NCBI RefSeq assembly: GCF_963921235.1
Contig: NC_086097.1
Coordinates: 8,556,001 to 8,620,000, forward strand
DNA length: 64,000 bases
Source of the DNA: Mobula hypostoma
Lineage: Eukaryota
Reading direction: 5' to 3'
The notes under the pieces are model-generated. The model saw nothing but the letters and a program-made list of their open reading frames with translations, did not search any database and was not told the origin of the DNA. Positions 1,040-64,000 of this stretch are shown here, in pieces. The translations under genes and the position numbers were made by a program. Each line of letters starts with the position of its first letter. Positions within the stretch are counted from its first letter, which is position 1.

Positions 1040-1210
1040 GGTTCCTTCAGGTTGCTATAGCTGGAGGTGGCAATGGGGACAAGCTCCCACTACCTACTAA
1101 ATGCTCCTAACGGCCTACGCTTCAAATAGCTTCTGACAGCCAAGTCCAGATCCTGGCCTTCCCGTGTGGTTTAGCTACTAAGCCCGCGGAACTGTTTCGA
1201 CTGACGGGAG
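1040..1210 (+). ncRNA. HDV/CPEB3-like ribozyme fold at the 5' end of family A
   Basis: P1 GGTTCC(1040-1045)/GGAACT(1188-1193) with a G1-U wobble; P2 TCCTG(1151-1155)/CGGGA(1205-1209); P3 GCC(1156-1158)/CGC(1185-1187, one mismatch); L3 TTCCCGT plus a hairpin; GT after P1; J4/2 C1201-T-G-A. Confidence 0.65.
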
Positions 1211-1620
1211 AAGGGGCAAAGGTGGGTTACTGTTGCCTTAAAACCAGTTGCTTTGATCCAGATGGGTCTCATCAGCTGTGGTTGGCAGCTCATCTAGTAG
1301 AAGGAAAACCCTGATCTCAAACATCTGCTGCCTTGTGGCTATAACCACTCAAGGGGAAGGCTTTGGGAGTAAACCTCAAGGGAAAAATCCAGAGATAAGG
1401 CAGTCCTACATTGAGTTCAATGCTGGCAGGTAACTCCTGCAATGCTGCTGGTGCCAAACTGTTTACCACTGCCGTTCCTTTGCGTTCATCAGATGCATAG
1501 AGAGGGGGAGCTTGCTACATAGGCTACAGCTTGCTCTCCATATTGTCCTGCCCAGGCTTGTGTATCTGGACAGTTAAGATACAATATCGCTGGTCAATGC
1601 TGACCGATGGAGGCCCTCAC
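1040..1620 (+). mobile_element. non-coding RTE-related retroposon, family A, copy 1
   Basis: About 580 bp inserted in a Rex tail. It is colinear end to end with 25714-26288 (-), both copies start GGTTCCTT, and there is no transposon ORF. Confidence 0.7.
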
Positions 1621-2004: not shown

Positions 2005-2520
2005 CGCACAAGGTGCTGGAGGAGCTCAGCAGGACAGGCAGCATCTGTGGTTGGGAATAACCAGTCCACAATTTCGCCGACACCCTTCATCAGGATTGGA
2101 AAGGAAAGTGGAAGGAGTTTAAGTAAGAAGGTGTGAGGGGGGAGGGTGGTAGGGAGGAATAAGTACAAGGTAGCTGGTGGAAGGTGAAACCCTGAGAGGA
2201 GGAGAAATGAAGTAAAAAAGCTGGAAAGTTGATTGGCAAAAGAGATAAAAGGCTAGAGTCTGAGGGAGATATCTGATAGGAGAGGACAGAAGTCCATAGA
2301 AGAAAGGGAAGGAGGAGGAGCACCTGAGGGAGGCGATATGAGTGGGAAAGGAATGGGAATCATAAAGGAGTGGAGGCAGGTGCAATTACTGGAAGTTTGA
2401 GAAAACACTGTTCATACCATTAGTGTGGAAGTTACCCCGATGGAATACATGGTGTTGTTCCTCCTAGCCAAGGGTGGCCTCATCGTGGCGGTAGACGAGG
2501 CCACGGACTGACTGACTGAC
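2005..2520 (-). mobile_element. Penelope-like element 3' fragment with pseudo-LTR
   Basis: Homologous to about 4020-4510 (end of the GIY-YIG domain, pyrimidine-rich UTR, pLTR). Degenerate hammerhead core CTGATGA at 2093-2087. Confidence 0.75.
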
Positions 2521-3374
2521 CAAATAAGTGTATTACCAAAAGCAAAACAGCCCAGAAAATGGCCATTCCATTCACATGTTTGAAGTTATTGTTCACAACC
2601 CCACAAGGCTGTGTACTCTTCCCCCTGCTGTACTCACTATACACCCATGATTGTGTAGCAAAGTTTCCATCAAACTCTATATATAAGTTTGCTGAGGACA
2701 CAACAATTGTAGGCCGTATCTCGGGTAATGATGAGTTTGAGTACAGAGAGGAAATTAAGAACCTGGTGGCATGGTGTGAAGACAATAACATATCCCTTAA
2801 CGTCAGCAAGACGAGGGAATTGGTTGTTAACTTCAGGAGTAGCGGACCGCACGACCCAATTTACATCGGTGGTGCGCAAGTGGAACAGGTCAAAAGCTTT
2901 AAGTTCTTCGGGGTCAATATCACAAATGACCTGACTTGGTCCAACCAAGCAGAGTCCACTGCCAAGAAGGCCCATTAGCGCATTTACTTCCTGAGAAAAC
3001 TAAAGAAATTTGGCCTGTCCCCGAAAACCCTCACTAATTTTTATAGATGCACCATAGAAAGCCTTCTTCTAGGGTGCATCACAACCTGGTATGGAAGTTG
3101 TCCTGTCCAAGACTGGAAGAAGCTGCAGAAGATCGTGAACATGGTGCAGCACATCACACAAACCAATCTTCCGTCCGTGGACTCACCTTACACGGCACGC
3201 TGTCGGAGCAGTGCTGCCAGGATAATCAAGGACACGACCCACCCAGCCAACCCACTTTCGGCCCTCTTCCCTCCGGGAGAAGGATCAGGAGCTTGAAAGC
3301 TCGTACGGCCAGATTTGGGAACAGCTTCTTTCCAACTGTGGTAAGACTGCTGAACGGATCCTGACCTGGATCTG

Positions 3375-7969: not shown

Positions 7970-9455
7970 CAGGATGTAAGGAGATAGGGAGACCGACAGT
8001 GTCCCTGACAACCACAACTGCGAGAAGTTCATCCAGCTGCAGTTTCTAACAATCCACATTAAGGAGTTGGAGCTGGAACTGGATGAACTCTGGATCATTT
8101 GGGAGGCTGATGGAATGATAGATAGGACATGTAGAGAGGTAGTTACACCCTATGTGCAGGGCACAGGAAACTGGGTGACAGTCAGAAAGGGGAAATGTAT
8201 TAAACAGCCAGTGCAGTGTATCCCAAGAGGAATACAACTTTGGATACTGCTGGAGGGGTGACCTCATGGCTTCATACGTGGTAGGTCATATCTAACCAAT
8301 CTTATAGAGTTTTTTTTTCAGAAATTTACCAAGAAAATAGATGAAGGCAAAGCAGTGAAAGTTGCCTACATGTACTTTCATAAGGAGTTTGGCAATTTCC
8401 CGTATGAGAGGCTGGTCAAGAAAGTTCAGTTGCTAGGCATTCAGGATGAGGTAGTGAATTGGATTAGACATTGGCTCTGTGGGAGAAGCCAAAGAGTGGT
8501 CGTAAAGGGTAACCTCTCTGACTGGAGGCCTGTGACTAGTGGTGTGCTTCAGGAATCGGTGCTGGGTCCTTTGTTGTTTGTCATCTGTTTCAATGATCTG
8601 CATGATAATGTGGCTAACTGGATCAGCAAATTTGCATTTAACACCAGGATTAGGGGTGTAGCAGACAGCAAGCAAGTTATCTTAGCTTGCAGAGGGATCT
8701 GTATCAACTGGAAAAATGGGCTGAAAAATGGCAGATAGAATTTAGGTTTTTCACTTTGGTAAGACCAACCAGGGTCGTCTTACACAGTAAATGGTAGGGC
8801 ACTGAGGAGTGTGGTAGAACAAAGGGATCTAGGAATACAGGTACATAATTCATTGAAAGTGGTGACCCAACTAGATAGGGACATAAATAATGCTTTTGGC
8901 ATATTGGCCTTCATAAATCAATGCATTGAGTATAAGAGCTGAGATGTTGAAATTGTATAAGACATTGGCGAGGCCTAATTTGGAGTACTGTGTGCAGAAA
9001 ATTCACAAGGATGTTGTCGGGTCATTAAGAGTGTTTCCTTAATTTATGAGGAAAGATCGAGCAGGTTAGAGCTGTATTCTTTAGAATGTAGAAGACTGAG
9101 AAGAGATTTGATAGAGGTATACGAAATTATGATGGGTATAGGTAGGGTAAATGCAAGCAGGCTTTTTCCACTGAGGTTGGTTGAGACTACAATCAGAGGT
9201 CATGGGTTAAGGGTGAAAGGTGAGAAGTTTAAGAGGATCCTGAGAGAATCCTTTTCACTCATAGGGTCATGAGAGTGGGGAATGAGCTGCCAGCACAACC
9301 CTTAAGAGAAGTTTGGGTAAGTAGATGGATAGTAGGGATATGGAGGGCAATGGTCCCGGTGGAGATCAATGGGAGTAGGCAGCTTAAATTCTTTCAGCAT
9401 GGACTAGATGGGCCAAATAACCTGCTTCTGTGCTGTACTTCTCTATGACTCTAAG
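7970..9455 (+). mobile_element. internally deleted CR1 (ORF1 zinc-finger/zipper piece joined to the RT 3' half)
   Basis: 7970-8260 encodes CEKFIQLQFL...KELELELDELWII (ORF1). From about 8265 it reads HGFIRGRSYLTNLIEFF and SGVLQESVLGPLLF, then a CR1 3' tail. Confidence 0.75.
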
Positions 9456-25303: not shown

Positions 25304-26757
25304 CAGTAGATTCCGGTTAATTAGGACAGATCGGGACCAGTATATTTTGGCCCAGTTGAGTAGCCGCCCCAATCAACTTTTATGGAAATAGTTAAAAAAG
25401 TATGAAAAAGACAAACTACCATTTAAAATTACATATTTAAATGAAATACAACACAAGTAAGAACACTAGCAATACTACTACACTGCTATAAAACTGTGTA
25501 TTAGTTCCTAATAGTTATCAATAGAGGAAGTCATCTAGTATATACATTCTTTTGATTGATTGTAAATGAACAAAATCAGTGCAGACAACTAGTGTAGATA
25601 ATGGACTGCCTTCATCTAATACTATCAAGATGTTGTGGTGTCTAATGGCCATGGAAGTGGACGTGACCGATGCTAGTTTGGCAACAGTCTTCTACCCCAA
25701 TTACATAGCATAGTGAGGCCTCTGACAGTCAGGGTCAACCGTGGATGTTGCGTGTTAGCTATCTAGATACATAATCCTGGACAGTACAACATGGAGAGCA
25801 AGCTATTGCCTATGTAGTAATCTCCCCCTGTCCATGCAGCTGATGAATCCAAAGGAACAGGAGAAACCAATATAACTTGGCAGCAGCAGCATTGCAGGAG
25901 CTGCCAGTTGGTCTTGAACTCAATGTAGGACTGCCTTAGGGACGGCAGCACTGGAGATTTCCCTCAGGATTTATTCCCAAAGCTTTCCCCATAAGGAGGT
26001 ATAGTCGCAAGGCAGTGGAGGTTTGAGATCAGAGTTTCCTTCTCCTAGATGAGCTGCCAACCACAGCTGATGAGCTGCATCTGCCCAAAGTGACCAGTAA
26101 CCCATCTTTGCCCCTTCTCCTGTTAGTAGAAACTGTTCTGCTGAGCTTTGTAGCTGAGCCACACATGAAGACCTGGTGCTGGATTTGGTTGTTAGAGGCT
26201 ATTTGAGATACACACCATTAGGAACAGTTCTAAGGTAGTGGGAGCTTGTCCCCATTACCACGCCCGGCTATAACAACCTTAAGGAACCAAAGTGGCACAG
26301 TGCCCCAAATAAAAGAGGGGAATCCTGGCTATTTTCTCAATTCATTTTATTCTTTAAGAGTTGTTCCAAATAAGCAACTGACTCAATAAACCAATGGCTC
26401 ATTTAAGACTATAAGAATATAAGACCGTAAGATTTTGTAGCAGAATTAGACCATATAGCTCATCAAGTCTGCTCCAACATTTCAACATAGCTGATGCATT
26501 TTCCCTCTTAGCTTCAATCTCCTGCCTTCTCCCTATATCCCTTCATGCCCTGACTAATCAAGATTCTATCAAACTCTGCCTTAAATATACCCAATAACTT
26601 GGCCTCTACAGCCACCTGTGGTAATGAATTCCACAGATTCACCACTCTCTGGTAAAGAAACTCCTCCTTATTTCTGTTCTAAATGGACATCCCTCTTTTC
26701 TGATGCTGTGTCCCCTGGTCTTAGACTTCACCACTATAAGAAACATAAAACGTACTG
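25304..26757. mobile_element. Tigger/pogo-like MITE hosting two later insertions
   Basis: TA|CAGTAGATTCC at the left end and TACTG|TA at the right end. Interrupted by 25714-26288 and by a CR1 3' end at about 26407-26745. Confidence 0.5.
25714..26288 (-). mobile_element. non-coding RTE-related retroposon, family A, copy 2 (decayed HDV-like fold at 26288-26117)
   Basis: Colinear with 1040-1620. Retains GGTTCC, L3 TTCATGT, a hairpin relic and C-T-A-A-CAGGAG. Confidence 0.7.
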
Positions 26758-48680: not shown

Positions 48681-48920
48681 CACAAAGTGTGGACTCTCTG
48701 ACTTAGGGAGAAAAATTAAGAAGGGTCTATATTTTTCAAATCTATAGTTCTAAAGGTGGTGCAAGAACTGCACATGGGTCTATCTGTTCACAAGTTGTTG
48801 AATAGAAGGGCATGTTGATAGAGTGGTAGCAACATTTATTGGCTCCCAAAAGATATTGAAAGCATAGACTAGAAATGCAGGAAACTGTGGAATATGTACA
48901 GAATACCGGTTGGGGGAGCA

Positions 48921-49440
48921 TGAAGTGCCCACGGAGGGGGTAGCACGTCTGGTGAAGGGGCTTGTTGTGTCCATTCTGGGGCCACTCACTCATGTTTGTT
49001 TCCGACTGGACAGTCAGCTCCCACCCATGCTTGAAGCAGCTGTTAGCATATAACAGTGGCCACACCTTGGTATACCACTTCGATAGTTGAGCTAAAGCAG
49101 GTGAGGGTAACTGGCGAGCCTCATACCCCAGTGTCATAGGGGCACAGCAGTGCTAGTATGTGAAATCAGCTCTGGTGGACGGGGTGAATGAGATCTAGAG
49201 TGAGATTTAACGGCCAGGAAGGTGGTACCGCAATGCTTTCTGGAGAGTGAAGGGCAGGACAAGGCACAGGTGACGGTCGTCCACTGCAACCAAGGAAGAT
49301 CCCAGTTTCTGATGCTTGTTCATACCACTGGACCTGGACTTTTGAGGTTGAGAATGGAACTGCTCCTGTGCAACAGCTTTTCCACTTAAACATTCTCCTG
49401 CACAGATTTCCTGTCATTGTCGGACATGATGGACAACCAG
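48921..49440 (+). mobile_element. non-coding RTE-related retroposon, family B (older relative) with HDV-like relic
   Basis: Colinear with 60306-61002 (GGAGGGG..GCAC.TCTGGTG, GGCCACAC, TAAA.CAGGTGAGGGTA, CTAG.ATGTGAA, AACGG.CA.GAAGG.GGT, CCACTGGA, CACTTAAA). Confidence 0.65.
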
Positions 49441-53552: not shown

Positions 53553-55880
53553 ATGCTGTGTAATGAACCTGAGCTGATTAGGGAGCTGGAGGTAATGGAA
53601 CCCCTTGGAAGTAGTGATTATAATATGACTGAGTTCAGTTTCAAATTTGAAAAGGAGAAGCTGGTATCAGGTGTATCGATATTTCAGTGGAACAAAGGGA
53701 ATTACAGTGGTATGCGAGAGGGACTGCCCCAAGTCAATTGGAAAAGTAAGCTAGATGGAGGGATGGTAGAGCAGAATTGGATGAAATTCCTATAAGAAAT
53801 AAGGAAAGTGCAGGAAAAATATATTCCAAGAAAAGAGAAAATCATGAATGGAAAAATGGCATAAATGTGGATAACGAGAGAGGTTAAGGCTAAAATAAAA
53901 GCAAAAGAGACGGCGTACAAGGAAGCAAAAAAAAGTGGGAAAACTGAGGACTGCACAATATTTAAAAACTTACTAAGAAAAATCATTAGGAAAGAAAAGT
54001 TGAATTATGAAAGGAAGTTGGCAATTAACATTATAAAGGGCACTAGGAGTTTTTTTTAATATATGAAGAGTAAAAGAGTGACACGGGTAGATATAGGACC
54101 CATGGAAAATAATGCTGGAGAAATTATAATGGGTAACAAGGAGATGGCAGAGGAACTAAATGAGTATTTTGCATCAGTCTTCACAGTGGAAGACATTAGC
54201 AACATACCTAATAGCCAGAGATATCAGGGAATAGAATTAGGTACAGTCAAGATTACTGGAGAGAAAGTGCTTGGGAAGCTAAATGGGCTAAGAATAAATA
54301 AGTCTCCCAGATCAGATGAGGTGCACACATGGGTTCTGAAGAAGGTGGCTTTGGAGATTGTGGAGGCATTGGAAATGATCTTCCAGGAATCAATAGACCC
54401 TGGCACGGTTCCAGAGGACTGGAAGGTTGCAAATGTAGTTCCGTTGTTTAAGAAAGGAGGGAGGTAGCAAAAAGAAAATTACAGACCTATTAGTCTGACA
54501 TCGGTAGTTGGAAAGTTATTGGAGTCAATCGTCAAGGATGAGGTTATGAAAAACCTTGAGGTGCATGACAAGATAGGCCCAAGCCAGCATGGTTTCATGA
54601 AGGGAAGATCCTGCCTCACCAACCTATTGGAATTTTTTGAGGTAATCTCAAATAAGATTGACAAGGGAGAGGCTGTGGATGTTGTGTATTTGGATTTTCA
54701 AAAGGCCTTTGATAAGGTGCGGCATAAGAGGCTGCTTAATAAGATGAGACCCCATGGAGTTATAGGAAAGATACTGGAATGGGTGGAGCATTGGCTGATA
54801 GGCAGAAAGCAAAGGGTGGGAATAAAGAGATCCTATTCCGATTGGTTGCCAATTACTAGTGGTGTTCTGCAAGGGTTGTTGTTGGGGCCACTTCCTTTAA
54901 AATGTATATCAATGATTTAGATTATGGATTAAATGGTTTTGTGGCTAAGTTTGCGGATGACACCAAGATAGGTGGAGGAGCAGGAAGTGTTAAAGAAACG
55001 GAAAGGTTACCGAGAGATTTGGTCAGTTTAGGAGAGTGGGTAAAGAAATGGCAGATGAGATACAATGTTGAGAAATGTACATTTGTACATTTTGGAAGAA
55101 GAAACAATTGGGCAGATTATTAATTAGATGGGGAGAAAATTCAAAAATCGGAAGTGCAAAGGTACTTGGGGGTCCTCGTGCAGGATACCCTAGAGGTTAA
55201 CCACCAGCTTGGATTGGCAGTAAGGAAAGTGAATGCTATGTTGGCATTTATTTCAAGAAGAATAGTGTATAAGAGTAAGGAGGTGTTGATGAGGCTCTAT
55301 GGGGTACTGGTAAGACCTCATTTGGAATACTGTGTGCAGTTTTGGGCACCCTATCTTAGAAGGGATGTTCTGATGTTGGAGAGAGTTCAGAGAAGACTTA
55401 CAAGGATGATTCCTGAAATGCAGGGGCTAACATATGAGGATCATTTGTCGGCTCTTGGACTATATTCATTAGAGTATAGAAAAATTAGAGGGGATCTCAT
55501 AGAAACATTTCGATTGTTGAAAGAGTTGGACAGAGTAGATGTGGAAAGGCTGTTTCCCTTGGTGGCTGAGTCCAGGACAAGAGGCCACAGTCTTAGAATT
55601 AGAGGGTACCCATTTAAAACAGAGATAAGGAGAAGTTTTTTTAGCCAGAGGGTCATGGATTTGTGGAATTCATTGCCACATACAGCTGTGGAGGCCCAAT
55701 CATTGAGGGTGTTTAAGGAAGAGATTGATAGGTATCTAATTAGTCAGGGTATCAAGGGACATGGGGAAAAAGCCAGTAATTGGAACTAGATGGGAGAATA
55801 ATTTAGCTCATGGTGGAGTGGTGGAGCAGACTCGATGGGCCGAATGGCCTACTTCTGCTCCTTTGTCTTGTGATCTTGTG
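53553..55880 (+). mobile_element. 5'-truncated CR1 LINE
   Basis: LGSSDY, PEDWKVANVVPLFKKG, HGFMKGRSCLTNL, YLDFQKAFD and KFADDTK motifs; tail tcttgtgatcttgtga. Confidence 0.95.
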
Positions 55881-56799: not shown

Positions 56800-58015
56800 A
56801 GGTAGATAAGGTCATAAAGAAAGCTTTTGGCTCAATGCCTTTTATAAATCTAAGTATTCAGTACAGGAGTTGAGATGTAATATTGAAGTTGTATAAGACA
56901 TTGGTGAGGCCTAATTTAGAGTATTGTGTCCAATTTTGGTCACCTACTGACAGGAAAGATGTAAATAGGTTTCAAAGAGTGCTGGGAATTGAGGAACTGA
57001 GTTGTAGTGGAAGGTTGAATATGATAGTATTTTATTCCCTGAAGTGTAGGAGAATGAGGAGAGATTTGACAGAAGTATAAAAAATCATGAAGGGTATAAA
57101 TAGAAACATAGAAAACCTATAGCACAATACAGGCCCTTCAGCCCACAAAGTGGTGTCTAATATGTCCCTACCTTAGGCATTACTAGGCTTACCTATAACC
57201 CTCTATTTTACTAAGCTCCATGTACCTATCTAAGTGTCTCTTAAAAGACCCTATTGTATCCACCTCCACCGCTGTTGCCGGCAGCCCATTCCACACACTC
57301 ACCACTCTCTGAGTAAAAAACCTACCCCTGACATCTCCTCTGTACCTACTTCCCAGCACCTTAAACCTGTGTCCTCTTGTGGCAACCATTTCAGCCCTGG
57401 GAAAAAGCCTCTGATTATCCACACGATCAATGCCTCTCATCATCTTATACACCTCTATCAGGTCACCTCTCATTCTCCGTCGCTCCAAAGAGAAAAGGTA
57501 GAGTTCACTCAACCAATTCTCATAAGGCAGATTCCCCAATCCAGGCAACATCCTTGTAAATCTCCTCTGCACCCTTTCCATGGCTTCCACATCCTTCCTG
57601 TAGTGAGGTAACCAGAACTGAGCACAGTACTCCACGTGGTGTCTGACCAGGCAACATTACCTCTTGGCTCCTAAATTCAATAGGGTAGAAATAAGCAGGC
57701 TTTTTCCATTGAGGTTGAATGAGACTTAACTAGTGATCATAGGTTAAGGGTAAGAGGTGGAATATTTAAGGGGAACACGAAGGGGACCTTCTTCATTCAG
57801 AGGGTGGTGCGAGTGAGGAACGAGCTGCTAATGCAAGTGGTAGATGGGGGATCAATTTCAATATTTAAGAAAATTTTGCATAGGTACATGGATGGGAAGG
57901 CATGGAGGGCTATGATCTGGTTGCAGGTCGATTGGACTAGGCAGATTCATGGTTCAGCATGGATTAGACAGGCCAAAGGGCCTCTTTCTGTGCTGTAGTG
58001 TTCGTGACTCAGTGA
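56800..58015 (+). mobile_element. CR1 3' part split by an antisense CR1 (57104-57678)
   Basis: RPNLEYC on the plus strand; inner minus-strand ORF 57189-57635; AATAG duplicated at 57099-57103 and 57679-57683. Confidence 0.85.
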
Positions 58016-60305
58016 CTCAATATTAATTCAACTTTGCATGTTGGACTCATGAACTGTTTCAAACTTAAGAAGTCACCATTTATATTTATGTATCCCTTCA
58101 GTAGCCAAATGAAAAATCTTCCTCATTATTCAGGTCAAATGGTGTCAGTTATTGCACTGTTAACACCTTATTTCAGAACCAGCTCCTCAGAGCCCTGTGA
58201 ATCAAAGATCTTGAAGTTGAAATAATTGTTCTCTGATTTATTTATGACATAATGGAGAGCTGTTGCAAAGTTTAACAAAGAAATCTCATTATATTCGCTG
58301 ATCCAGTGCTTAAACCCAGAATCTCAGAGGGCAGCCACTGTTGTTAAGGAAGCTTATATTAAAATCCTAGATGGCACATGCAGTCATTTCAGATAAAAAG
58401 TTCAACTTTATTATCATTTCAACCATAAACATGTATTCCCCCAAAAAGAAACAATGATCCTCCAGACCAAAGTGCACAACACAGTTCATATAACTCACAC
58501 GTAACAGATAAGTAATATTACCACAAATATATTAACAGATAATAAAGTGCATTTACAATACTAGCTAAAACGCTAATGGTATAACACTACTGGCGCTACA
58601 TATATGATGAGAACTGGGTGGTGGTCATGTACATTTCTAAGCTCCACGTACATATCCAAGAGCCTCTTAATCTGACCATGTCACACACTCACCACTTTCT
58701 GCATAAAAAACTTACCCCTGACATCTCCTCTGTACCTACTTCCAAGCACCTTAAAACTGTGGCCTCTCATGTTAGCCATTTCAGCCCTGGGAAAAAGCCT
58801 CTGACTATCCACACAATTAATGCCTCTCATCATCTTATACACCTCTATCAGGTCACTTCTCATCCTCCGTTGCTTCAAGGAGAAAAGGCCAAATTCTCTC
58901 AACTTATTCTCATACGGCTGCTCCCCAATCCAGGCAATGTACTTTTAAATCTCCTCTGCACTCTTTTTATAGTTTCCACATCCTTCCTATAGTGAGGTGA
59001 CCAGAACTGAGTGAGCATACTACTCCAAGTGGGGTCTGGCCAGGGTCCTATATAGCTGTAACATTATTTCTTGGCTCTTGAACTCATTCCCACGGTTGAT
59101 GAAGGCCAATTCACAGTATGCCTTATTAACCACACAGTCAACCTGCCCAGCAGCTTTGAGTGTCCTATGGACTCGAACCCCTAGATCCCTCTGATCCTCC
59201 ACACTGCTGAGTCTTACAATTAATACTATAGCCTGTCATTATATTTGACCTACCAAAATGAACCACCTCACACTTATCTAGGTTGAATTCCATCTGCCAC
59301 TTTTCAGCCCAGTTTTGCATCCTATCAATGTCCCGCTGTAACCTGTGACAGCCCTCCACACTATCCACAACACCCCCAACTTTTATGTCATCAGGAAATT
59401 TACTAATCCATCTCTCCGCTTCCTTTTCCAGGTCATTTATAAAAATCACGAAGGGTAGGGTCCCAGAACAGATCCCTGAGGCACACCACTGGTGACCGAC
59501 CTCCATGCAGAATATGACCCATCCACACTTTGCCTTCTGTGGGCAAGCCAATTCTGGATCCACAAGGCAAGATCCCCTTGGATCCCATGCCTCCTTACTT
59601 TCTCAATAAGCCTTGCATGGAGTACCTTACCAAATGCCTTGCTGAAATCCATATACACTACATCTACTGCTCTACCTTCATCAGTGTGTTTAGTCACATC
59701 CTCAAAAAATTCAATCAGGCTCGTATGGCATGACCTGCCCTAGGCAAAGCCATACTGACTATCCCTAATCAGATTATGTCTTTTCAAATGCTCATAAAAC
59801 CTGCCTCTTACAATCTTTTCAAAAAACTTGCCCACCACTGAAGTCAGACTCACCAGTCTATAATTTTCTGGGTTATCTCTATTCTCTTTCTTGAACAGGG
59901 CAACAACATTGGAAACCCTCCAATCCTCCGGTACTTCTCCTGTCTCTATTGATGATGCAAAGATCATCACCAGAGGCTCAGCAATTTCTTCCCTTGCTTC
60001 CCACAGTAGCCTGGGGTATATCTTGTCTGGTCCTGGTGACTTATCCAACTTGATGCTTTCTAAAAGCTCCAGCACATCCTCCTTCTTAATGTTTATATGC
60101 TCAAGTTTTTCACTCCACTGTAAGTCATCCGTACAATCATCAAGATCCTTTTCCGTAGTGAATACTGAAGAAAAGTATTCATTAAGTACCTCCGCTACCT
60201 CCTCTGGTTCCATACACACTATTCCCACTTTCACACTTAATCTCATGTCTTATCCTCTTGCTCTTCACATACTTGTAGAATGCCTTGGGATTTTCCTTAA
60301 TCCTG

Positions 60306-61002
60306 TAGGGGTGTATGGGGTGTCAGGGAGGGGTGCACCTCTGGTGGGGGAACATGTCGCGTCCTTTTCTAGGCGGTTAGTCCACCTTTGGTCCCCACCT
60401 GGCAGTCAGTTCTCACCTGTGGCTCCTCGTAGCTGTTTGCATGCGTCAGCGGCCACACTCCGGGCAACGGCTCCAACAAACCGGTTAAACCAGGTGAGGG
60501 TAGCCGACGGGTCTCAAACCCTCAGTGAGATAGGGAGTTGTCTATCCTAGCATGTGAAGACAGACTCCGGCAGACTGAGCGGACGAGACCAATGGAAGGT
60601 TCAACGGTCAAGAAGGCGGTCTCTGCAAGCGTCGTGGAACGTGTGGAGCACGACAAGACACAGAAGATGTCCTGGTCATCCACTGCGCCTAGTCCCATCT
60701 TCAGGCATCTCAACTCTTGTCTTGCCACTGGATCCAGATGGGAATTGGGAAGAGAGAGCTGACGCTGTGCAACTCTCCATCACTTAAATCCAAAACAAGC
60801 GTTCGTCTCAACAGCATAAATCACCATCTGGAGGCAAGTGGCTTCAGCGCTGGACTTCAGGGTGAGTGGTCCCGAGTTCGAATCCAGCCGGCTCCCTTGC
60901 ATGCTTTCCATCCGTGCTGGGTTAAGCATTGAGCTAGCAACTCAACCTCGTAAAAAAAAAGTACTAATGGGGTTGAAGTCTTCATCGATGACTATGGATG
61001 AA
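60306..61002 (+). mobile_element. non-coding RTE-related retroposon, family B, full length
   Basis: 11-bp TSD CCTTAATCCTG at 60295-60305 and 61003-61013. Contains a nested tRNA/RTE SINE at about 60828-60960. Confidence 0.85.
60308..60500 (+). ncRNA. HDV-like ribozyme fold at the 5' end of family B (C75-equivalent is T in this copy)
   Basis: P1 GGGGTGT(60308-60314 or 60317-60323)/ACACTCC(60455-60461); P2 CTCACCTG(60412-60419)/CAGGTGAG(60491-60498); P3 GGC(60421-60423)/GCC(60452-60454); L3 TCCTCGT; GGGCAAC(60462-60468); P4 CGG/CCG; J4/2 G-T-T-A-A. Confidence 0.8.
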
Positions 61003-63025: not shown

Positions 63026-64000
63026 TTACTTCATGGCTTGGCTTCACAAACGAAGATTTAGGAAGGGGGCTGCCCACGTCCGCTGTAGACTCGTTGGTGG
63101 CTGATGAGGCCAATACGGGACAGGCCAGGCTCGGCCACAGCGACTGCAAGGGAAATTCTGTTCTGGGTTTGGTGCTGCAGTGTCACGGTTCTTCCTCCTT
63201 CTCCTTTTGTCCTCAATGCCAGCCCTGCGTGCGTTCTCGAAGGAGGAAACAGACTGGTGAATGGTGTGTCACCAGGCCTCGCGATCGGAGGCTAGATTAG
63301 ACCACTGGCGATGGTCAATGTGACAGGCACCAAGGGATTCCTTCAGAGAGTCCTTGTACCTTTTCTTCGGTGCCCCTCTGTCACGGTGGCCAGTGGAGAG
63401 TTCACCATACAGCACAATCTTGGGCAGGCAATGATCCTCCATCCTGGAGACGTGCCCTGCCCAGCGCAGCTGCGTCTTCAACAGCATGGCCTCGATTCTG
63501 GTGACCTCCGCCTGTTTGAGGACTTCGATGTTGCTGACGAAGTCACTCCGGTGGATGTTGAGGATGGTGTGGAAGCAGTGCTGGTGGAAATGCTCAAGGA
63601 GTCGTAGGTGGTGACGGTAGATGACCCAGGACTCAGACCGTACAGGAGGGTGGTCAGTACAACGGCTCTGTACACGCTGATCTTTGTGCCTTTCTTCAAA
63701 TGCTTGTTGTTCCAGATTCTTTGTACAGCCTGCCAAATGCACCGTTTGCCTTTGTCCGTCTGTTGTCAATCTCTTTGTTGATCTTGGCATCTGACGAGTT
63801 GGTGCACCCCAGGTAGCTGAACTGGTGGACTGGCTTCAGCTCTACCTCACCGATGGTGATGCAGGGAGGGTGGTAATCTTCCTGAGGTGTGGGCTGATGG
63901 AAAACTTCTGTCTTCTTCAAGCTGATTTCTAGTCTGAAGAGCTCGGCAGCCTTTGCAAAGCAGGATGTTATATGCTGCAGGGCTGTCTCTGTGTGGGCAA
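63026..64000 (-). mobile_element. RTE-clade LINE 3' part, continuing beyond the window
   Basis: ISLKKTEVFHQP, FSYLG, QLRWAGHVSRMEDHCLPKIVLYGEL..G.R.RGAPKKRYKD and a C-terminal Cys/His motif; frameshifted. Confidence 0.9.

Follow-up and report, generated by a model that had tools for sequence, protein, structure and literature searches.

A hairpin within loop L3 of putative HDV-like ribozymes at the 5' ends of short retrotransposons in Mobula hypostoma

Self-cleaving ribozymes that resemble the ribozyme of hepatitis delta virus (HDV) are sought in genomes with structure descriptors and covariance models that treat loop L3, which belongs to the active site, as a short loop of fixed length. To our knowledge, current descriptors and covariance models all fix L3 at 7-8 nucleotides (nt). 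A 64,000-nt stretch of the Mobula hypostoma genome (assembly GCF_963921235.1, contig NC_086097.1, positions 8,556,001 to 8,620,000 of the forward strand; hereafter the window, with positions counted from its first letter) raises the question of whether this loop can also accommodate a stable helix. An initial annotation, made from the letters of the window, had placed three stem-loops, at 1168-1184, 60432-60450 and 49039-49057, between a 7-nt L3 motif and the 3' strand of helix P3 in two putative ribozyme families. All three stem-loops can be read directly in the sequence, and in both families the hairpin does lie between the motif and the P3 3' strand.

We located these hairpins in the 5' ends of short non-autonomous retrotransposon families of about 510-590 base pairs (bp), designated A and B/C/D. 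We propose, at a probability of roughly 0.5, that they are part of 5'-terminal HDV-like self-cleaving ribozymes in which the hairpin, termed P3.1, would be an extra peripheral helix that probably aids folding. The sequence anatomy of the elements, the family-wide presence of the insert, the coincidence of the 5' end with the predicted cut site and the covariation of helix P4 were computed here; we infer catalysis, as well as any role of the hairpin beyond being tolerated. Judged by their sequences, the elements with an L3 helix are probably a new structural variant of a known ribozyme class.

If L3 tolerates a stable helix, current searches are blind to such ribozymes, and Rfam misses thousands of copies in a single vertebrate genome. 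The end of L3 would then join J1/2 and P4 as a place that tolerates peripheral domains, which would matter to studies of folding and to engineering, for instance when aptamers are inserted or in 5' modules for R2-based insertion templates. The elements would also add vertebrate, non-autonomous members with genome-wide insertion to the retrotransposons that cleave themselves to define their 5' ends. Should cleavage fail, the finding shrinks to a curiosity of two repeat families.

Repeat families carrying the hairpins

Self-comparison of the window and genome searches placed all three hairpin sites within interspersed repeats. Family A is about 590 bp long, with at least 4,923 candidates genome-wide and 84-88% identity among 39 scored copies, the window's own excluded; an alignment of 30 copies set its borders at GGTTCC (5') and near CCTCAC (3'). 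Family B (about 560 bp, at least 2,767 candidates genome-wide) shows 94-95% identity to its window copy, while family C (about 530 bp, at least 2,038 candidates, 75-79% identity to its window copy) is an older relative of B. Lineage D (about 510 bp), a relative of both, came to light through a pattern search and makes up 9 of 100 B/C/D-type core matches, among the matches listed. Conservation is lost sharply at both borders of each family, and coding capacity was found in none of the four.

The initial annotation had assigned the hairpins at 60432-60450 and 49039-49057 to a single family. Their common site stands, but at least three lineages (B, C and D) are involved and carry essentially one hairpin, so that the independent hairpin sequences number two and not three. 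Likewise, the long stem described at 49039-49057 (GCTGTTA-GCATA-TAACAGT) is present, but its extra two pairs are limited to that one old copy. As a feature of family C the 7-bp stem was rejected, being unseen in the other 29 C loci wherever the core could be located.

Family B bears the marks of retrotransposition mediated by long interspersed nuclear elements (LINEs): target-site duplications, which measure 8-13 nt and were found in 15 of 30 copies, and a tail that reads (AAC)n. Duplications, a simple-repeat tail, 5' truncations and the lack of coding sequence, which characterize LINE-dependent non-autonomous retrotransposons, were all found, the duplications mainly in B, as they were recovered in just 2/30 A and 1/30 C copies. 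A tRNA-like 5' head, which is the hallmark of short interspersed nuclear elements (SINEs) transcribed by RNA polymerase III, is absent, with ARAGORN calling no tRNA-like gene in the window; scans for promoters, terminators and tRNAs gave nothing relevant.

The sequencing data consisted of contigs of 24 runs, of which four were compared over the window, three of these being guessed to be RNA; they were informative solely for the letters that other copies and species have at 60446, 60459, 60485 and comparable positions. Contigs of runs X13, X15, X16 and X19 contain family B sequence that has the hairpin letters of the family. As these runs are labelled as four different organisms, family B appears to be common to several related species. 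The 5' flank of the window's B copy (60250-60307) is itself a repeat; its summed depth exceeds that of the B element by a factor of about 3 to 150 in the different runs.

The predicted ribozyme fold

A, B, C and D all have the strands P1, P2, P3, L3, P3', P1', P1.1, (P4), J4/2 and P2' in that succession. In family A, P1 is formed by the first bases of the element, GGTTCC, with GGAACC; J1/2 extends over about 104 nt, P2 is CTCCTG/CAGGAG, P3 is GCC/GGC, and the L3 motif TTCACGT is followed by GT, the hairpin GGCTTAG-CTA-CTAAGCC and a C. P1.1 is GT, P4 is absent and J4/2 has a C 3 nt ahead of P2; it is because of this spacing that C 1201 is the candidate catalytic base of the first window copy, A1. 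The intact core C-GGC-GGAACC occurs in 56 genomic copies, with 0 for the reversed-pattern control. As the core is rich in CpG, most old copies are without P3 or the last P1 pair. A pattern search for A-like cores with a different hairpin start gave 0 matches. Nine of the 56 CpG-intact cores, several of them with a U.G variant of the hairpin, lie within about 5 Mb of one contig (G000:C91:64.19-69.39 Mb); their clustering and the common variant suggest local segmental or tandem amplification and not independent insertions.

In family B, the first 7 nt of the element (GGGGTGT) pair with ACACCCC, which directly follows P3. Near-intact copies have P2 CTCACCTG/CAGGTGAG, P3 GGC/GCC and L3 TCCCCGT, followed by one A, the hairpin, whose family form is GCTGT-TTGCATGCG-ACAGC, and one G. 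P1.1 is GG opposite the CC of L3, J1.1/4 is GCAA, P4 is CGGCTT-CGAC-AAGCCG and J4/2 is GCTAAAC. Lineage D (L096-L104), with P4 CCGTCT-CGGC-AGACGG and J4/2 GCCAAAC as against GCTAAAC in B and C, is the source of most of the P4 covariation described below. B, C and D elements start with a tandem of the P1 5' strand (GGGGTGT-AT-GGGGTGT; window 60308-60323, L032-L060, L062-L104). Either heptamer, the second being at 60317-60323 in the window, is able to pair with the P1 3' strand, and just one 5' end defined by a target-site duplication starts at the second. The tandem is possibly a competitor offering an alternative P1, or a relic of 5'-end repair.

The features expected of an HDV-like active site were compared with those of the families. 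In the L3 7-mers TCCCCGT, TCCAAGT and TTCACGT, positions 1, 3 and 6 are U, C and G, with GG or GT as P1.1, and this pattern is retained in 28/29 B, 22/27 C and 23/29 A aligned copies. A cytosine for which a catalytic role is predicted stands in the expected place of J4/2, as GGC-TAAAC in B and C, GGC-CAAAC in D and A-C-TGA in A, and J4/2 is identical between B and C at 7/7 positions. Where a loop of 7-8 nt closing the 3-bp P3 would be expected, the 7-nt motif is there, followed by a further 20-21 nt before the P3 3' strand.

In every family the conserved repeat opens with the P1 5' strand, 6-7 nt long, the conserved block of A starting at GGTTCC, and P1 is wholly different between A and B/C/D with complementarity preserved in each; by our estimate, such complementarity would arise by chance at fixed positions with probabilities of about 6e-5 and 2e-4 in the two unrelated families. 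The duplications in B were scored as exact repeats of at least 8 nt among 30 copies. Among the 15 so found, 4 put the 5' end exactly at G1, 7 start 2-9 nt inside the element and 3 look spurious, being of low complexity or internal; one further copy starts at G1 by eye, with one mismatch in its duplication, and no copy has a credible start upstream of G1. The duplications that abut G1 put the 5' end of full-length B copies at the predicted cleavage site.

A strict descriptor, in which all helices had to be perfect, the L3 helix was required and the P1 partner had to lie within 300 nt, was run over 705,972 bases, comprising both strands of the window and of loci L001-L090. It matched 21/30 B, 4/30 C and 1/30 A copies, all at the expected site, and nothing elsewhere in the scanned bases. 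Helix retention was counted only in copies aligned without indels, out of 30 examined per family. Among the 29 such copies of B, P2 and P3 were retained in 28 each, the hairpin in 27 and P4 in 25; the figures for the 27 C copies are 13 for P2, 21 for P3, 18 for the hairpin and 13 for P4, and those for the 29 A copies 17 for P2, 7 for P3 and 22 for the hairpin, P4 being absent.

Covariation was examined in an alignment of 20 rows from B, C and D. Four of the six P4 pairs have changed on both sides, and the fold pairs in 93.6% of cells, compared with 20-50% when partners are slid. The covariation score of 0.139 (shuffled mean 0.099) was reached by 0 of 500 shuffles, a comparison in which related sequences may outscore shuffles even when they have no structure. 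Within these rows P2, P3, P1.1 and the hairpin do not vary. A further trace of the fold comes from Rfam, where the model RF02682 aligned to the near-intact B copy L033 at 13.2 bits (cut-off 44, E = 3.6) over GGGCAACGG..CCGGCTAA, an alignment restricted to J1.1/4, P4 and J4/2. The 5' ends, the P4 covariation, the specificity of the descriptor and the silence of the Rfam models at their gathering scores together support the suggestion, made in the initial annotation, that an HDV-like subclass with a helix in L3 may be missed by descriptors of fixed L3 length.

A covariance model (R1) was built from B and C; an alignment made with MAFFT had misaligned A with the B/C cores, and A was left out. Searched against the window, R1 matched the B and C copies but not A, and genome-wide core counts were made with IUPAC patterns instead. 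By the criteria of the ribozyme model itself, the window copies A1, B and C would all be dead. In the B copy, position 60446 is T, as against A in the other 29 of 30 copies and in the contigs of all four runs, and the fifth stem pair of its hairpin is lost through this change; the candidate catalytic position 60485 is T, as against C in the family and in all four runs' contigs. Table 1 lists the features of the window copies.

Table 1. Elements and predicted ribozyme parts in the window
Feature	Position	Strand	Details
Family A element, copy 1 (A1)	1040..1620	+	about 580 bp, decayed, non-autonomous; from 30-copy alignment
Family A element, copy 2	25713..26288	-	hairpin remnant at 26160-26144, two mismatches
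Family B element	60308..60823	+	3' end approximate, truncated
Family C element	48913..49438	+	flanks ACCGGTTGG / ACTGGTTGG resemble its target-site duplication
A1 P1 5' strand GGTTCC	1040..1045	+	first element bases; predicted cleavage just 5' of 1040; 6 bp with 1188-1193 (GGAACT), first pair G1.U, G1-C in the CpG-intact form GGAACC
A1 long J1/2	1046..1149	+	putative internal hairpin GGTAATGGGG...TCCCACTACC, from sequence and family consensus
A1 P2 5' strand ATCCTG (family CTCCTG) and P3 5' strand GCC	1150..1158	+	P2 partner 1205-1210
A1 L3 7-mer TTCCCGT	1159..1165	+	family form TTCACGT
A1 L3 hairpin (P3.1) GGTTTAG-CTA-CTAAGCC	1168..1184	+	7-bp stem, one U.G pair
A1 P3 3' remnant GC, P1 3' strand GGAACT (1188-1193), P1.1 GT (1194-1195)	1186..1195	+	one G of GGC missing
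A1 TTCGA without P4, J4/2 CTGA, P2 3' strand CGGGAG (1205-1210)	1196..1210	+	candidate catalytic C 1201
B P1 5' strand GGGGTGT	60308..60314	+	partner 60455-60461 ACACTCC (family ACACCCC); predicted cleavage just 5' of 60308
B J1/2, 97 nt	60315..60411	+	putative long-range helix GGTGGGG (60342-60348) / CCCCACC (60393-60399)
B P2 5' strand CTCACCTG (60412-60419), T, P3 5' strand GGC (60421-60423)	60412..60423	+	P2 paired in 28/29, P3 in 28/29
B L3 7-mer TCCTCGT	60424..60430	+	family forms TCCCCGT and TCCTCGT
B L3 hairpin (P3.1)	60432..60450	+	GCTG(T)...(T)CAGC, 4 bp in window copy
B P3 3' strand GCC, P1 3' strand ACACTCC, P1.1 GG	60452..60463	+	window copy
B J1.1/4 GCAA, P4 (60468-60483, decayed), J4/2 (60484-60490), P2 3' strand CAGGTGAG (60491-60498)	60464..60498	+	
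C ribozyme core, decayed, L3 hairpin 49039-49057	49020..49105	+	model R1, 58.1 bits, E = 3.9e-15

The window as a whole is a pile of transposon remnants. Open frames that resemble fragments of LINE reverse transcriptases, by eye only, lie at 2520-3296, 8262-9272 and 54060-55789 on the plus strand and at 57189-57656, 59165-60249 and 63269-63998 on the minus strand; they seem to come from several families, in both orientations, and none has the same 3' end as A, B or C. Directly 3' of the truncated B copy, 60840-60900 contains a B-box-like GAGTTCGAATCC and is presumably a tRNA-derived SINE fragment, although ARAGORN calls none there. A (TA)n/(TG)n microsatellite at 900-957 gives spurious sub-threshold matches to mir-297 and mir-466 on both strands.

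The L3 hairpin and the readings it allows

In both groups the hairpin begins 1-2 nt 3' of the 7-nt L3-like motif and ends 1 nt 5' of the P3 3' strand. The initial annotation had put this site at HDV U27, and the placement agrees, the insert being at or just after the equivalent of U27, where L3 of the genomic HDV ribozyme comprises U20-U27 (PMC1874588). The hairpin sequences of A and B/C/D are unrelated, and they occupy the same site despite different types of L3 and P1.1. The window segment of family A folds at -14.7 kcal/mol (z = -4.02), as good a fold being found in 0/200 shuffles, and in near-intact C and A copies the unconstrained optimum fold includes the hairpin. For two random 20-nt inserts, we roughly estimate the joint chance of terminal 7-bp and 5-bp stems (Watson-Crick, anchored 0-2 nt from the insert ends) at about 1e-6.

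The insert is also rarely absent. With exact flanks, 2,894 B/C/D-type cores have an insert of 13-30 nt and 18 have one of 0-12 nt, mostly through different partial deletions; family A cores number 56 with the insert and 2 without, and every reversed-pattern control in these counts gave 0. Three of the 18, all C-type copies (G000:C59:17457962-17457985, C67:10877135-10877158 and C68:53413948-53413971; two identical, one with a substitution) have lost the whole 20-nt insert and have an L3 of canonical length. The loss is flanked by short AGT repeats and may be a recurrent microhomology deletion.

Few parts are as similar between the B and C consensus sequences as the hairpin region. Of its 21 columns 19 are identical, both differences being CG to TG, compared with 5/7 in L3, 1/4 in J1.1/4, 12/16 in P4 and 77/101, 67/100 and 82/168 in three downstream blocks of the element. 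Lineage D retains the GCTG/CAGC stem with a shorter loop that differs at two positions, and both partners of the fifth stem pair are missing in 8/8 rows. The 9-nt loop of B and C (window 60436-60446) has the palindrome GCATGC, which resembles kissing-loop dimerisation sites; as D has GCACGC and lacks the palindrome, dimerisation was dropped as a general explanation. Among the 56 listed A cores, read individually, 14 have the exact family form of the hairpin, a group has U.G at pair 3, three have a compensating U-A there and one has A-U changed to G-C at pair 6.

We propose the following course of events. Ribozyme RNA would be made within a longer transcript of a LINE-dependent non-autonomous element and would adopt a nested double-pseudoknot fold consisting of P1 (the first 6-7 nt), a structured J1/2 of about 100 nt, P2, a 3-bp P3, P1.1 and the J4/2 cytosine, with P4 in the fold of B/C/D and none in that of A. 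A cut just 5' of the ribozyme's own first base would free the element RNA from the read-through transcript and fix the 5' end with which new insertions are then copied. P3.1 would follow the catalytic 7-8 nt of L3 and precede the P3 3' strand, in the place equivalent to that where the U20-U27 loop of genomic HDV ends. Self-pairing of the 20-21-nt insert would keep the catalytic 7-mer and the short P3 near their canonical geometry, and P3.1 would probably help the core to fold, as a local clamp against competing pairings of the 3' half of L3; in B it may serve to exclude a competitor hairpin of that half. A wider claim, which we offer tentatively and at somewhat less than even odds, is that cartilaginous-fish genomes contain an undescribed HDV-like subclass with an obligatory L3 helix as a folding clamp or protein handle, similar ribozymes possibly going undetected in many other genomes, and that L3 in this subclass becomes the 5' side of an asymmetric internal loop.

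A number of results weigh against the proposal that the hairpins belong to functional ribozymes and aid their folding. The hairpin stem of B/C/D shows a change on both sides in 0/5 pairs over the 20 aligned rows, and the pattern of variation in family A fits neutral decay, so that the sole real covariation of the hairpin is the wholesale difference between A and B/C/D; a lack of hairpin covariation, which the initial annotation had named as grounds for refuting its suggestion, is in part what we see. The window segments of B (z = -0.42, 57/200 shuffles as good) and C (z = -0.78, 46/200) are unexceptional on their own. The B hairpin alone is worth -5.0 kcal/mol and is locally optimal only if the L3 7-mer is kept unpaired, and a competitor hairpin that uses the 3' half of L3 (CGTAGC with GC-A-TGCG) reaches -9.3 kcal/mol, compared with -4.9 kcal/mol for P3 plus hairpin. 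CpG-intact forms (ACACCCC-GG; GGAACC) start P1 with a G-C pair, where a G.U pair is expected and genomic HDV has G1:U37; G.U occurs only in copies with a decayed CpG. P1 formed from the first repeat is intact in 9/28 B, 7/19 C and 7/22 A copies tested, in B because many copies are 5'-truncated or mutated there, and the duplicated heptamer makes the register of P1 ambiguous. Family A has no P4 and keeps P3 in just 7/29 aligned copies, whereby its fold rests on the CpG-aware reading backed by the 56 genomic copies. The window copies are decayed, A1 with one G of the P3 3' strand gone and the first P2 pair broken, B with T60446, T60485 and a broken-down P4, and C with heavy mutation. Rfam release 15 returned 0 HDV-family hits in the window at the gathering score and, at E<=10, none in 900-1500 or 60300-60520, the output being otherwise microRNA look-alikes driven by microsatellites and chance hits. 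As copies of one transposon family are related by descent, high copy numbers do not count as independent support. Contigs that start at 60307-60310 run on into other flanks and are uninformative on cleavage, contigs being unable to show RNA 5' ends. A search for a partner LINE found none: nothing else in the window or in the retrieved loci matched the 3' end of A, B or C, matches to the tail motif are no more frequent than chance, and downstream of two D copies there are unrelated repeats, D itself being short.

Some of these results are what would be expected if the ribozymes are real and the hairpin is a neutral passenger, that is, an insert of about 20 nt at the solvent-exposed, mutation-tolerant end of L3 that persists only because it is self-paired and leaves the core undisturbed, with no functional contribution. 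The lack of compensatory stem change within B/C/D, the modest stability of the B hairpin (segment z between -0.4 and +0.2), the three copies with a canonical-length L3 and the existence of only two independent hairpin sequences, in A and in B/C/D, all agree with this explanation, and we give it serious weight while considering it unlikely. A passenger, however, should be lost more freely than the ratios of 18 to 2,894 and 2 to 56 indicate, and each deletion of the insert looks different, so that no lineage without it appears to have amplified. It should also not be kept between B and C better than L3, J1.1/4 or P4, nor should D have dropped both partners of one pair while retaining the rest of the stem, nor two lineages with different L3 types have used the same unusual site. 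The hairpin could instead serve chiefly for recognition, by a partner protein or as a signal at the DNA level, and not as a folding aid. The 9-nt loop of B and C is indeed conserved letter for letter bar CpG decay, nearby parts of the core having changed; the R2 protein is reported to bind a pseudoknot in the extended 5' ribozyme region (PMC6765202); and A and B/C/D differ in their 3' ends, hence probably in their partners, as well as in their hairpins. We nevertheless regard such a module as improbable, because D has the same stem with a shorter loop of other sequence, the loop of A is just 3 nt, and the searches of window and loci revealed no partner LINE and with it no protein that could be named.

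The more radical doubt is that there is no ribozyme, the HDV-like pairings being coincidences in the GC-rich 5' regions of ordinary retroposons and the hairpins mere local structure. Rfam is silent, the first P1 pair is G-C, A is without P4, the B segment folds no better than its shuffles, and the helices other than P4 are invariant within B/C/D and hence uninformative. Coincidence would, however, have to make the first 6-7 nt complementary to the bases directly after P3 in two unrelated families, let the 5' end marked by target-site duplications fall on the predicted cut, have P4 covary at 4/6 pairs, leave the descriptor without a match outside the expected sites in 705,972 bases and align the letters of J1.1/4, P4 and J4/2 to RF02682, and we consider this quite improbable. 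An objection confined to family A is that its P3 has been drawn in the wrong register. GCC-TTCACGTGT-GGC can be drawn from the sequence, with GCC pairing to the first GGC of the supposed hairpin, an L3 of 9 nt and an extra 18 nt between P3 and P1; in the window's A copy, moreover, the 3' half of L3 can lengthen the hairpin stem (CCGTG with CGCGG). This register breaks the hairpin, which is part of the optimum fold in 3/3 intact A segments tested, it puts 18 unpaired nt into a junction where the canonical fold has none, and it is unavailable in B/C/D, where GGC is without a second partner. It is, in our judgement, very improbable. The P3.1-bearing, 5'-terminal ribozyme remains our preferred reading.

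Comparison with known HDV-like ribozymes

HDV-like ribozymes of retrotransposons are well known, and the helix inside L3 would be the new part. The known ones are believed to free the RNA of their element from a co-transcript (PMC3774820, PMC6765202, PMC11331408), and non-autonomous elements that carry them have been recorded in a review (PMC6765202). Our literature search found no description of a helix inside L3 of an HDV-like ribozyme, the founding papers lying outside its coverage and the accessible texts being partial, so that such absence is unproven.

The ribozymes of R2, RTE, Baggins and L1Tc/NARTc, with their non-autonomous derivatives, resemble the present ones in lying at the extreme 5' end with the cut at the first base, and in having a long, structured J1/2 and a P4 that is variable or absent. 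R2 ribozymes are reported to have a long J1/2 and a dispensable P4, too short to form a structure (PMC3774820), which puts family A within the known range apart from its L3 helix. The present elements differ in this helix, none being mentioned for those ribozymes in the accessible parts of the sources, in their cartilaginous-fish host and in the G-C first pair of P1, and also in that they are 510-590 bp long, have no open reading frame and insert genome-wide with target-site duplications. Ribozymes of the drz-Agam-2 type, with their J1/2 domain and P1.2 'pinch', are matched here by a J1/2 of about 100 nt with a putative long-range helix (PMC4908430). In large HDV-like ribozymes the peripheral domain in J1/2 was proposed to speed folding and activation (PMC4908430); in the present families an additional helix lies in L3 beside the active site, whereas that of the drz-Agam-2 type lies in J1/2.

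Genomic HDV and the B, C and D cores agree in the order of the helices, the initial U of L3, a CC-GG P1.1, formed in HDV by C21/C22 with G38/G39, and the G at the position of G25 (PMC1874588). Genomic HDV differs in its 8-nt L3 without a helix and in its first P1 pair (PMC1874588), a wobble already counted above among the results that weigh against us, and it is a viral element serving rolling-circle processing. The model of the HDV ribozyme from F. prausnitzii, RF02682, shares with a near-intact B copy the letters of J1.1/4, P4 and J4/2, GGCAACGG..CCGGCUAA; the alignment scores 13.2 bits against 44 and does not extend to the 5' half, where P3, L3 and the hairpin lie.

Family A matches the CPEB3 ribozyme in the type of its L3 and P1.1. 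The latter has a 7-nt L3, with U21 C22 A23 C24 G25 U26 after U20, and a P1.1 composed of C22-G37 and U21-U38 (bioRxiv 10.1101/2022.09.22.508989). The ancestral L3 7-mer of family A has the same letters, and the G and U that follow P1 would yield the same weak P1.1 of one C-G and one U-U pair. CPEB3 is a single-copy mammalian intronic element that has nothing beyond the 7 nt in its L3, possesses a P4 and has a J1/2 that is short, whereas family A has a 20-nt insert in L3, no P4 and thousands of copies.

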